The notes beneath the pieces are model-generated. The model did not search any database. It saw nothing but the letters and a program-made list of their open reading frames with translations, and had not been told where the DNA came from. DNA of 29,068 nt from a virus. Positions 16,439-18,665 of the stretch are shown piece by piece; within the stretch, counting starts at the first letter, position 1; each line of letters begins with the position of its first letter. Both the position numbers and the translations under genes were made by a program. The stretch is from the IMG/VR virus record IMGVR_UViG_3300030390_000234, one strand, 5' to 3'.

Positions 16439-16803
16439 TTGAACACAAACATCTAATAGTTAAAGGCTTTTATCAAGGTACAATGACTAAAACAAGGATA
16501 AGACATTTTTTAAATGATTTAATATTCCTTTTAGATATGAAGCTAATGGAACTTCCTAATAACCCAAACATAGGTTATGTTGGTGGAGAAGGCTCTGGGC
16601 ATACTGGAGTGGCTATTATAACTACATCACATATTGTATTGCATTGTTGGGAAAAAACTATGGAGTACCAATTAGATGTATATTCTTGTAAAAAGTTTGA
16701 CCCAGCAACTATAATAGCTTATTGTTCTGATGAGAGATTTTATAAAGTTTCAGCAAGATTCTTTGATAGAAATTATGATATAATTACAGATGAAGATATA
16801 TAG
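16435..16803 (+). CDS. AdoMetDC-fold (SpeD-like) pyruvoyl-dependent decarboxylase homologue, 122 aa
   Basis: HKHLIVKGFY...GSGHTGVAIITTSHIVLHCWEKTMEYQLDVYSCKKFDP aligns with the class-1 SpeD motifs (G)VSGVVxIxESHLTIHTWPE...IDLFTCG..DP. The Ser, His and Cys are conserved. Confidence 0.7.
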   Translation: MIEHKHLIVKGFYQGTMTKTRIRHFLNDLIFLLDMKLMELPNNPNIGYVGGEGSGHTGVAIITTSHIVLHCWEKTMEYQLDVYSCKKFDPATIIAYCSDERFYKVSARFFDRNYDIITDEDI

Positions 16804-18010
16804 CAAAAAGAATGTAGTAGAAGCTGGACTGGAAAGAATAGAAAGAGTGTTTCACGAATTTGAAGAGGTTATTGTTGGTTTCTCTGGTGGTAAAGATTCA
16901 ACAGTTACTTTGCATTTAGCATTAGATGTAGCAAAGAAGCTAAACAGATTACCACTAAAAGTAATGTGGGTAGACCAAGAAGCTGAGTGGCAATCTACTT
17001 GCGACTATGTACAGAGTGTATTTGACAGAGAAGATGTAGAACCTATCTGGTTTCAAATGCCTATGAAATGGAATAACAATATGTCTAACAAGACTAAGCA
17101 TATTACTATTTGGGAGGAGGGTAAAGAATGGATAAGAGAAAAGTCTCCTATATCTATACAAGAAAACAGATACTTAAATGTAGGATTTAATGAATTGTTT
17201 GGCAAGATATTAGAAGTAGACTTTGCAGACAAAAAGACTTGCTATTTATCTGGTGTGAGAACAGAGGAATCTCCTAAACGATTTGTCGCTCTAACTACAA
17301 GCGTTACATATCAAGATATTACTTGGGCAAAGAAATTAAAAAAGGATTTACATTATACATTTTATCCTATTTATGACTGGAGTTATACAGATGTTTGGAA
17401 ATACATTAATGCTGGTAAACTAAACTACAATACAATATATGATGAATTATATCGCAAAGGTGTAGGTCTAAATCAAATGAGAGTATCAAGTCTACATCAC
17501 GAAACATCTTTAAAGGCACTTCTACTTGTACAAGAATTAGAACCTAAGACTTGGGTAAAAATGGCTAAACGACACGATGGTATAAATACTATTAAGCATC
17601 TAAAGGGCGATGCCTATAAGTGTCCTAAGAACTTCCCTTATATGTTTGAAAGCTGGAAAGAGTATGCTCTACATTTAGCAGACAAATTAATAGACAATGA
17701 TAAAAACAAGAAGTCTTTTAATAGGCAAGTAGAAAATCATAAGTTTTTTGACAATGAGTTTTCTGGTAAAGATTATTGGAGAGTAATGATTAATACAATA
17801 CTATCTTTAGATTTTGATTATACAAAATTAAGCAACTATACTATGAGTGCAAATGCAGATACATTTAGAAGGTATCACAGAAACCCTAAAGGTGCTGGGA
17901 AAGATAAATTTGTATGGAAACCAGTAATGCTCAAAAATACCAGATACTTAACTACTGAACAGAAAATAGAAATAACTGAACACTTTAGAAATGAACGACT
18001 TAAAAAATAG
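16790..18010 (+). CDS. PAPS-reductase family PP-loop ATPase with a long C-terminal extension (IbrA-like), 406 aa
   Basis: VIVGFSGGKDSTVTLHLA (PP-loop SGGxDS), YLSGVRTEESPKR, YPIYDWSYTDVWKYI, and a ~170-aa C-terminal domain as in IbrA/DUF3440-type proteins (memory-based). Confidence 0.75.
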   Translation: MKIYSKKNVVEAGLERIERVFHEFEEVIVGFSGGKDSTVTLHLALDVAKKLNRLPLKVMWVDQEAEWQSTCDYVQSVFDREDVEPIWFQMPMKWNNNMSNKTKHITIWEEGKEWIREKSPISIQENRYLNVGFNELFGKILEVDFADKKTCYLSGVRTEESPKRFVALTTSVTYQDITWAKKLKKDLHYTFYPIYDWSYTDVWKYINAGKLNYNTIYDELYRKGVGLNQMRVSSLHHETSLKALLLVQELEPKTWVKMAKRHDGINTIKHLKGDAYKCPKNFPYMFESWKEYALHLADKLIDNDKNKKSFNRQVENHKFFDNEFSGKDYWRVMINTILSLDFDYTKLSNYTMSANADTFRRYHRNPKGAGKDKFVWKPVMLKNTRYLTTEQKIEITEHFRNERLKK

Positions 18011-18665
18011 CATTAAGATAGCTTTTAACAAATCAGAAGATAAAGCTGAGTTTGTAAATGAATTAAGAAGCTGGATGCATAAACATATATCATTAGTTCC
18101 ACAACCAATAGATAATGTGCAATGGGTTCCAGTAGATAAAGTACAACCAAATGACTACAACCCTAATTCAGTTGCTAAGGTGGAAATGGGGCTTCTGTAC
18201 AAGAGTATAAAGCACGATGGCTATACTCAGCCTATTGTAACTATTTACGATGCAGAGATAGACAAATATGTAATAGTAGATGGCTTCCACAGATTTTTTA
18301 CTTGTCAAAGAAACAAGGATATAATGGAAAGGAATAAAGGTATGTTGCCAATAGTAGTTATAGATAAAGATATAAACGATAGAATGGCATCTACTGTTAG
18401 GCATAATAGAGCAAGAGGAGAACACTCAGTAGAGGGAATGTCTAATATGGTATTTGATATGCTTGAAAATGGTTGGAGTGAAGAACGCATCTGTAATCAT
18501 TTAGGTATGGAGCCAGAAGAAATATTAAAGCTGAAACACATAACTGGATTCAGTAAGCTATTTGATAATGTAGAATATAAAAAGTCTTGGGAAACTATGC
18601 AACAACTCAAAGCAAAAAAGGCTTTCATAAGACCTAATCAATCAAATCACAATGAACAAAACTGA
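17991..18665 (+). CDS. ParB/Srx-like protein of IbrB type, 224 aa
   Basis: VPVDKVQPNDYNPNSV...GYTQPIVTIYDAEIDKYVIVDGFHRFFTC...RMASTVRHNRARGEHS. It overlaps the PP-loop gene by 20 nt and terS by 14 nt. Confidence 0.7.
   Translation: MNDLKNSIKIAFNKSEDKAEFVNELRSWMHKHISLVPQPIDNVQWVPVDKVQPNDYNPNSVAKVEMGLLYKSIKHDGYTQPIVTIYDAEIDKYVIVDGFHRFFTCQRNKDIMERNKGMLPIVVIDKDINDRMASTVRHNRARGEHSVEGMSNMVFDMLENGWSEERICNHLGMEPEEILKLKHITGFSKLFDNVEYKKSWETMQQLKAKKAFIRPNQSNHNEQN

Follow-up and report, generated by a model that had tools for sequence, protein, structure and literature searches.

An IbrA/IbrB-type gene pair ahead of the terminase genes of a metagenomic phage, a candidate DNA-modification module

The viral record IMGVR_UViG_3300030390_000234, a stretch of 29,068 nucleotides that we refer to in its entirety as the window, carries two overlapping genes immediately upstream of the genes for its terminase. 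The first codes for a PP-loop ATPase with the fold of 3'-phosphoadenosine-5'-phosphosulfate (PAPS) reductases, and the second codes for a protein of the ParB/Srx superfamily. On the sequence comparisons given below, the two are established as members of the IbrA/IbrB (YbdN/YbdM) family. Our tentative view, which we hold at somewhat less than an even chance, is that they constitute a ParB-guided, ATP-dependent DNA-modification module. The pair and the two terminase genes that follow it are arranged as listed here.

16790–18010, + strand: IbrA/YbdN-type PP-loop ATP pyrophosphatase (IbrA), 406 amino acids, ATG start; PAPS_reduct and DUF3440 domains followed by a helical C-terminal tail
17991–18665, + strand: IbrB/YbdM-type ParB/Srx protein (IbrB), 224 amino acids, ATG start; N-terminal ParB-fold domain and C-terminal helix-turn-helix (HTH)
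18652–18996, + strand: probable small terminase (terS), 114 amino acids, ATG start; N-terminal HTH
18983–20299, + strand: large terminase (TerL), 438 amino acids, TTG start; Terminase_3, Terminase_6N and Terminase_3C domains

The list of open reading frames (ORFs) bears out the coordinates and lengths of these proteins, the SGGKDS PP-loop at IbrA residues 32–37, and the overlaps of 20 nucleotides (IbrA/IbrB) and 14 nucleotides (IbrB/terS) that a first-pass annotation had reported; terS and TerL also overlap by 14 nucleotides. That annotation recognized the pair as IbrA/IbrB, and profile searches and comparison with E. coli now agree with it. Three lines of evidence concur on membership in the family, namely domain architecture, PHROG matches and alignment with the paralogues of E. 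coli K-12. IbrA matches PAPS_reduct (PF01507, residues 27–222, 6.8e-20), DUF3440 (PF11922, residues 224–323, 6e-7, 29.8 bits against a cutoff of 25) and phrog_2302, annotated as 'PAPS reductase' (3.4e-79), and is 28% identical to YbdN over 400 amino acids (E 1e-39). IbrB matches phrog_2159, annotated as 'ParB-like' (5.4e-74), and is 40% identical to YbdM over 191 amino acids (E 4e-53); its match to Pfam ParB_N (9e-6) lies just below threshold, with 26.0 bits against a cutoff of 26.3.

The window pair resembles both IbrA/IbrB of the E. coli ECOR-9 island and YbdN/YbdM of K-12 in architecture (406 versus 405 amino acids for the first protein), and it shares with ybdN-ybdM the gene order, an overlap between the two genes (28 nucleotides in E. 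coli) and similarity over nearly the full length. An extension of about 170 amino acids at the C terminus of IbrA, singled out by the first-pass annotation, is indeed present, but it is the DUF3440 domain and helical tail typical of the family, and YbdN aligns across it. The differences from the E. coli pair lie in sequence identity, which is only 28% and 40%, and in setting. Whereas the E. coli copies reside beside citR and ybdL, the window pair occupies a lytic-type operon directly before terS and terL, within a larger cassette that includes a second ParB gene and transferase-like genes.

This family is large. Searches with IbrA recovered 256 clusters at 50% identity with E ≤1e-30 and 835 with E ≤1e-10, and members range across phages that infect at least four bacterial phyla, one archaeal virus and numerous bacterial chromosomes, that of E. 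coli K-12 among them. Pairing was assessed in 80 IMG/VR loci (27–59% IbrA identity) and in 77 bacterial loci. An IbrB-type gene is found on the same strand within 1.5 kb of IbrA in 76 of the 80 viral loci, and IbrB lies downstream of IbrA within two called genes in 61 of the 77 bacterial ones. Existing annotations name the two genes IbrA/IbrB in Flavobacterium phages 6H, 2A, FCL-2 and FPSV-F7 and in Rhizobium phage L338C, and the literature reports them in Macrococcus phiMC1 and in the Heimdallarchaeal virus HeimV2. The window pair thus adds a new and divergent representative to a family that is known and often annotated, for which our literature search returned no paper that assigns a biochemical activity. 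One viral locus (IMGVR_UViG_3300005512_000418) has two IbrA-type genes in tandem, the second of which codes for 388 amino acids with PAPS_reduct and DUF3440 (1e-31).

An alignment of 17 IbrA family members from phages of Bacteroidota, Actinobacteria and Firmicutes and from E. coli defines the probable active site. All 17 sequences carry R16, S32-G-G-K-D-S37, D62, E64, W108, G155, R157, E160 and R164, as well as P193, I194, D196, W197, D201, Y217, R231 and P252, and no cysteine is invariant across the set. CysH requires a C-terminal catalytic cysteine, and enzymes of the DndC, SspD, TtuA and ThiI types require cysteine or an Fe-S cluster. Because there is no conserved cysteine, IbrA is not expected to be a PAPS reductase or a DndC-type sulfur enzyme, and on this alignment the missing cysteines exclude both reductase and phosphorothioation chemistry. 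Model scores agree. The NCBIfam models for cysH (TIGR00434), PAPS_reductase (TIGR02057) and DndC (TIGR03183) give 29.9, 24.5 and 34.6 bits against cutoffs of 165.1, 254.2 and 290.4, respectively, and the PADLOC DndC and BrxP models match IbrA weakly and in the PP-loop domain only. We therefore rejected a CysH-type PAPS/APS reductase, for which there is no invariant cysteine and the scores are far under the cutoffs, and also a phosphorothioation enzyme of the DndC/SspD/BrxP kind, for which the scores are again below cutoff, cysteines are not conserved and partner genes are missing from the window. The kinship with DndC that the first-pass annotation mentioned consequently holds at the level of a distant shared fold but not beyond it.

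These results bear on a label that is already in circulation. Viral homologues that carry DUF3440 have been counted as cysH auxiliary metabolic genes (bioRxiv 10.1101/2021.01.05.425418), and the PAPS_reduct match of the 406-amino-acid protein could be taken in the same way, as a CysH-type PAPS reductase that boosts sulfate assimilation by the host. The lack of the catalytic C-terminal cysteine, the low scores and the obligate pairing with a ParB-like protein make this extremely improbable. By these sequence criteria the proposal is already close to refuted, and the sulfur-metabolism label is not supported for the clade to which the window belongs.

Structural comparison points toward a different activity. 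The AlphaFold model of IbrA has a predicted local distance difference test (pLDDT) score of 85.6, and its matches among solved structures are confined to the N-terminal half. The best are to enzymes of this fold that transfer adenylyl groups, namely the PAPS domain of human FAD synthase (8ron/8rom), FMN adenylyltransferase (3g5a) and CysD (1zun), and CysH, TtuA and TilS are matched as well. IbrA shares with CysH, CysD and FMN adenylyltransferase the fold of its N-terminal ~220 amino acids, the PP-loop and an Arg-x-x-Glu-x-x-x-Arg loop (GVRxEESxxR). It differs from CysH in lacking the catalytic cysteine, and from all three in having an additional helical half of ~180 amino acids (DUF3440 plus tail) that has no match among solved structures. 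No solved structure of IbrA or IbrB was found, only distant fold relatives. Judging from the model and the invariant residues, the likely activity of IbrA is transfer of an adenylyl group (the alpha-phosphate of ATP), without sulfur or redox chemistry.

Its partner appears to combine a ligand pocket with DNA binding. In an alignment of the IbrB family the motifs PNDYNPN, DGFHR and RHNRARG are kept across phyla, and many residues of PNDYNPN and RHNRARG are present in at least 90% of the sequences. DGFHR occupies the position of the GERR CTP motif of ParB proteins. IbrB is also unusually well conserved, with 70–82% identity among more than 100 homologues, compared with 49–64% for the IbrA proteins of related contigs. 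The IbrB model (pLDDT 70) is matched by Foldseek to KorB, Noc and ParB at 1e-6 to 1e-5, with both the N-terminal domain and the HTH covered, whereas kinases of the ParB/Srx fold and sulfiredoxin match it only at ~1e-2. Because of the motif conservation, the structural match to KorB, Noc and ParB and the unusual conservation of the protein, IbrB is predicted to have a conserved ligand or catalytic pocket together with DNA-binding capacity. A canonical partition ParB was considered and rejected, since IbrB has no GERRxR, the Pfam scans of the window found no ParA, and no convincing parS-like repeats are present.

The same folds could instead serve a small-molecule pathway. In such a scheme IbrB would be a kinase resembling sulfiredoxin, SerK or SbnI, and IbrA would adenylylate the resulting phosphate in the manner of CysD or FMN adenylyltransferase. 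The product would be an AMP- or ADP-linked donor, with which GT-A-type glycosyltransferases, GNAT proteins and methyltransferases would decorate virion proteins, surface glycans or DNA. The nearest structures to IbrA fit this idea, as do the DGxHR motif that IbrB shares, its weak matches to SbnI (0.05), SerK (0.0045) and free serine kinase folds, and the clustering of glycosyltransferase-like, GNAT and methyltransferase genes with IbrA in the window clade and in Microbacterium phage Hendrix. However, IbrB has a conserved HTH and is nearer to DNA-binding ParB proteins than to kinases in the Foldseek results, the presence of SNF2 helicases and DNA methylases among the partners indicates DNA, and the transferase neighbours are lacking in most loci. 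We consider this pathway a doubtful explanation for the pair.

Outside the window's clade, the SNF2 helicase is the most frequent additional partner of the pair. A gene for a protein of this kind, of about 400 amino acids, lies near the pair in 19 of the 77 bacterial loci, and in 17 of those 19 it is directly upstream. It is the only recurrent neighbour of the bacterial pairs, which are otherwise surrounded by housekeeping genes. The same association is seen in Flavobacterium phages FPSV-F7 and VK58, and Streptococcus phage PYS40, in which the pair is part of the replication region, has a 'DNA helicase' in the same position by annotation only. This recurrence suggests a three-gene, DNA-acting cassette consisting of the SNF2 helicase, IbrA and IbrB. 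In close relatives of the window, genes for N6_N4 DNA methylases, a methyltransferase-type ParB, GNAT proteins and GT-A-like proteins fill the slot upstream of the pair. As judged from gene content, the SNF2 helicase, the DNA methylases, the methyltransferase-type ParB and the terminase point to DNA as the substrate. PADLOC did not assign the pair to any defence system.

Within the window the pair is embedded in a compact set of genes. Overlaps of 1–20 nucleotides occur at nine consecutive gene junctions between positions 14812 and 21222, and a promoter and terminator scan found no terminator-like site on the + strand between 12.5 and 22.5 kb. Therefore the pair lies inside one tightly packed operon. 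In the same scan promoter-like sites were rarer than in shuffled sequence, and no internal regulatory boundary could be placed. The 114-amino-acid ORF that follows the pair is identified as a probable terS by its terS profile match (phrog_4044 at 1.5e-7 and phrog_309 at 5e-7) and by its position directly before TerL; Pfam gives only weak HTH_8 and HTH_7 matches. In relatives this position, again directly before TerL, is held by DUF5681 proteins or by proteins of two other clusters (c5 and c11). TerL matches Terminase_3 and Terminase_6N in Pfam (~3e-9) and phrog_2 (6e-29), and it is 48% identical to the TerL proteins of Flavobacterium phage 11b and Cellulophaga phage phi10:1. These TerL relatives suggest a Flavobacteria-like host.

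A position directly upstream of terS is a common one for activators of late transcription in phages. In one rival explanation, IbrB would be a KorB-like regulator that turns on the late packaging and structural operon, and IbrA would modulate it, for example by nucleotidylating IbrB or a small ligand. The top structural match of IbrB is to KorB, a transcriptional repressor clamp. Moreover, the sole experimental phenotype recorded for the family is that it switches on expression of prophage eib genes in E. coli (PMC6008420 and PMC7649339, citing Sandt et al. 2002). This effect could nevertheless have arisen indirectly, through modification of or damage to DNA, and a fully conserved PP-loop catalytic site would be unusual in a transcription factor. 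In addition, the pair lies within the operon and not at its head, since no terminator or strong promoter separates it from its neighbours, a sigma-factor-like gene is already present just after TerL, and the commonest additional partner elsewhere is the SNF2 helicase rather than a gene related to RNA polymerase. A co-activator role is unlikely on balance, although it is the strongest of the rival explanations.

The association with the terminase was surveyed across the family. Counts of adjacency are lower bounds, since the custom TerL hidden Markov model sees only Terminase_3/6N-type proteins; Pfam rescued five more loci, and two large ORFs in the expected TerL position could not be assigned. 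Among 21 IMG/VR loci with at least 43% IbrA identity, the order IbrA-IbrB-terS-TerL is present, with TerL within 3 kb, in at least 17. The same order, headed by the second ParB gene, the gene for the 93-amino-acid protein and one or more variable enzyme genes described below, recurs in five metagenomic lineages (IbrA 49–63% identical) and in a relative with 97% protein identity. Of the viral loci, 59 are informative in that their sequence continues for at least 3 kb downstream, and TerL is located no more than 3.5 kb downstream in at least 23 of these, made up of at least 18 of the 40 loci in which IbrA precedes IbrB and at least 5 of the 19 with the reverse order. Only 2 of the 77 bacterial loci have TerL nearby. 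Among cultured phages, Mycobacterium phage Obutu has the order PAPS-reductase, ParB, TerL, with the IbrB-type gene overlapping TerL and no annotated terS; Arthrobacter phage Salgado has ParB, PAPS-reductase, ParB, methyltransferase, HTH, TerL; and FCL-2-like phages have the pair between TerL and the portal gene. The link to the terminase is real but partial: it is a conserved and recurrent synteny that is neither universal nor obligatory.

The first-pass annotation had taken the coupling to terS as a sign that the pair acts on DNA at or before packaging. Conservation of the order in the clade and its recurrence in actinophages speak for that suggestion. Set against it, overlap between genes is general to the operon, the pair is missing from phages 11b and phi10:1, and for the majority of the distant viral copies, and almost every bacterial one, the neighbour is not a terminase. 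The functional inference of that annotation is thus plausible but was over-weighted. A more specific variant would make the pair a packaging accessory, with IbrB recognizing pac or cos or loading the terminase and IbrA performing an ATP-dependent step at the DNA end. The synteny in the close relatives, the direct overlap in Obutu of the IbrB-type gene with TerL and the placement in FCL-2-like phages would all suit such a role. However, it is very unlikely, given that phages 11b and phi10:1, with 48% TerL identity, do without the pair, that almost all of the bacterial and many of the viral copies are distant from any detected terminase, and that the window carries its own terS.

The genes immediately upstream of the pair in the window form the remainder of the cassette, and a nuclease gene precedes them.

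14260–14670: VRR-NUC nuclease (8.7e-9), upstream of the cassette
14812–15390, + strand: second ParB/Srx protein (ParB#1), 192 amino acids; ParB_N (8.6e-7)
15390–15671, + strand: conserved 93-amino-acid protein that follows ParB#1 (cluster c2, found in 19 loci)
15668–16438, + strand: GT-A-like glycosyltransferase candidate, 256 amino acids, in the variable slot (cluster c7)
16435–16803, + strand: AdoMet_dc-family (pyruvoyl decarboxylase-like) protein, 122 amino acids, overlapping IbrA by 14 nucleotides

Clustering of neighbour genes in 24 close loci yields a common order for this cassette, in which the second ParB is followed by the 93-amino-acid protein, by one or more variable enzyme genes, and then by IbrA, IbrB, terS and TerL. 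The first variable position is held by a glycosyltransferase-like gene of cluster c7 or c4, an N6_N4 methylase (c9) or a c13 gene, and the second by a GNAT gene (c6) or the AdoMet_dc gene. IbrA and IbrB are the fixed end of the cassette in the window's clade.

Practically all close relatives have ParB#1 in the vicinity of the pair. Pairwise comparison of ParB#1 with IbrB gave no significant similarity (E 0.5). Its matches to phrog_620 (2.8e-23), to phrog_498, annotated as 'DNA methyltransferase' (7.8e-23), and to PADLOC MTase_II (3.7e-8) mark it as the kind of ParB protein that is usually fused to phage DNA methyltransferases. The c2 protein has invariant residues P25, H26, Y67, Y75, W76, M78 and N89 and no profile match in Pfam, PHROGs or the PDB. 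Part of the 'methyltransferase' genes in phages Hendrix and Salgado is homologous to it (1.8e-6 for Hendrix gp156). Assignment of the c7 protein as glycosyltransferase-like draws on TIGR04440 (6.7e-4), a profile match to the PglI-type glucosyltransferase 9jma (0.0025) and an invariant DDD at residues 91–93; one homologue also matches Glycos_transf_2 at 1.8e-6.

As a candidate class 1 AdoMet decarboxylase, the AdoMet_dc protein is matched by PF02675 (6.6e-11, 42.9 bits against a cutoff of 25) and phrog_3125 (7.5e-11), and scores 30.5 against a cutoff of 75.65 for TIGR03330. Its self-processing motif keeps Ser-His, with Thr in place of Glu (T-S-H), and reads 'ITTSHIVLHCWE' compared with 'LAESHISIHTWPE'. 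Among all the loci surveyed, the gene is restricted to the window, the near-identical loci L180–L182, the L008 lineage and L011, and is present in 0 of the 80 IMG/VR loci. This sparse distribution led us to reject the gene as an obligate third partner of the pair, and its rarity led us to drop a general mechanism based on a decarboxylated S-adenosylmethionine donor.

A close comparison reveals how the variable slot changes. Between the window and locus L180 both flanks are 90–92% identical in nucleotide sequence, and exactly one gene is exchanged. The 256-amino-acid glycosyltransferase-like c7 gene of the window (~15672–16431) is replaced in L180 by a c4 gene coding for 183 amino acids (905–1441) of unrelated sequence. 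Members of the c4 family share an invariant DD and match GT-A proteins weakly. Such turnover of glycosyltransferase-like genes between near-identical genomes is as expected of an arms-race locus. A homologue of the c4 proteins of these marine phages is found in Microbacterium phage Hendrix as gp154, annotated as hypothetical (E 2e-19 and 1e-30 in separate comparisons). It lies at the right end of the genome beside a glycosyltransferase, the methyltransferase with the c2 region, an acetyltransferase and an IbrA-like 'adenylyltransferase'; no IbrB was found near the IbrA-like gene in the stretch that was fetched. Because of this gene set in Hendrix, the same enzyme families can be said to travel with IbrA in very distant phages.

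Several features of the rest of the window are recorded here. Its G+C content is ~31%, and the large genes are all on one strand. Overlapping the 3' end of TerL is a gene for a 181-amino-acid sigma-factor-like protein (phrog_1740 at 3e-13, with weak Sigma70_r2/r4), which is an unusual place for a transcription factor; it is followed by a gene for a Cys-rich protein of 134 amino acids (weak DUF6171, phrog_13558), and both are contained within 20289–21222. With the sequence written in this linear form, the packaging genes come after the predicted head and lysis genes, as shown by an XkdF-type protease ORF (2236–2955), a weak portal match (5980–7950) and a Peptidase_M15 gene (8764–9117). Two intervals of ~0.7–0.8 kb each, 9118–9853 and 13246–14075, have no ORF of 75 or more amino acids on either strand, and no tRNA genes were found anywhere in the window. 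An ORF of at least 1286 amino acids (25211–29068) exits at the 3' end, and the 5' end (1–270) starts inside a frame-0 ORF. The relative with 97% protein identity is on a contig of 29,659 bp, and the 29,068-bp window may be a nearly whole, circularly permuted genome that was cut in a giant tail or fibre gene. Megablast of positions 14000–21000 against cultured phages produced no match, and the phage is known only from metagenomes.

Combinations of similar proteins in other systems provide further parallels for the pair. In DndB/DndC, SspD and BREX type 4 BrxP, a PP-loop ATPase of the PAPS-reductase fold likewise accompanies a ParB-superfamily protein, and those systems modify DNA. IbrA of the window differs from DndC, SspD and BrxP in having no conserved cysteines and consequently no Fe-S cluster or persulfide chemistry, and Pfam scans of the window found no DndA, DndD, DndE, cysteine desulfurase, SMC-like or PglZ gene. 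A ParB homologue also lies beside an enzyme gene in the 5mYOX and DpdA/DpdB systems, in which it is an obligate partner of the DNA-modifying enzyme (PMC13229309, PMC12839542). Experiments have shown that DNA T-dioxygenases depend on phage ParB homologues as obligate activators (PMC13229309). DpdB is described as a ParB-like ATPase that drives preQ0 insertion into DNA; another member of the ParB superfamily, DndB, belongs to the Dnd systems and has been proposed to be a negative regulator there (PMC12839542). Unlike the enzymes of the 5mYOX and DpdA systems, IbrA is a PP-loop ATPase rather than a dioxygenase or transglycosylase, and IbrB has DGFHR in place of the GERR motif. The two-domain fold of IbrB, with a ParB N-terminal domain and an HTH, is also that of KorB, which acts with KorA in RK2, and of the ParB and Noc CTPase clamps. 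IbrB lacks their CTP-binding GERRxR, no ParA gene or parS-like repeats were found to accompany it, and it is paired with an enzyme instead of a small repressor.

The intact PP-loop, the obligate pairing, the DNA-acting neighbours and the synteny with the terminase lead us to favour, tentatively, a DNA-modification module. In this model IbrB, through its ParB/KorB/Noc-like nucleotide-pocket domain and its HTH, would bind phage DNA and would recruit IbrA or switch it on, presumably as a complex of the two proteins. IbrA would then move AMP from ATP and thereby activate an oxygen, whether it belongs to a base, to a phosphate or to a group attached to the DNA, and the swappable neighbour enzymes (glycosyltransferase-like, GNAT, methyltransferase and decarboxylase) may elaborate the activated site. 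The cassette is probably co-transcribed with terS and terL, because no intrinsic terminator was detected. If the transcript is shared, DNA would be marked shortly before or during packaging. The most likely benefit to the phage would be escape from host restriction.

Several observations weigh against this model. No chemical evidence points to a modification, and neither a donor nor an acceptor group suggests itself in any obvious way. Pfam scans detected no thymidylate-synthase-like, 5mYOX or DNA-kinase genes in the window, and PADLOC gave no match of IbrB to a DndB or DpdB model. A search of positions 13000–21500 for parS-like or pac-like repeats returned only low-identity, AT-rich chance matches, so that repeated candidate binding sites near the locus were not found. 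Phages 11b and phi10:1, the closest cultured relatives by TerL, lack the pair. The bacterial pairs are usually alone among housekeeping genes with no restriction-like partner, and the sole experimental phenotype recorded for the family is the prophage activation described above.

A bolder version of the DNA-modification model would make IbrA/IbrB the heart of a new type of DNA hypermodification that takes place after replication. The ParB-type protein would bring the cysteine-less PP-loop enzyme to double-stranded DNA, where IbrA would adenylylate a base oxygen or a phosphate much as TilS, GMP synthase and CysD adenylylate their own substrates. GT-A proteins, GNAT proteins, methyltransferases and the pyruvoyl decarboxylase encoded nearby would then build different adducts, and the exchange of a glycosyltransferase gene between phages that are 90% identical would serve to outrun host restriction. 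We regard this version as rather unlikely. If it is true, the 'prophage activation' phenotype of IbrAB would be explained as an indirect effect of DNA marking.

IbrA and IbrB are routinely mislabelled, either as a sulfur-metabolism auxiliary metabolic gene or as a 'virulence regulator'. The compact cassette with its swappable transferase slot provides a small, defined gene set that makes the long-open question of IbrA/IbrB function testable. If the pair does mark DNA, it would represent a new enzyme class among the DNA-modification systems of phages.

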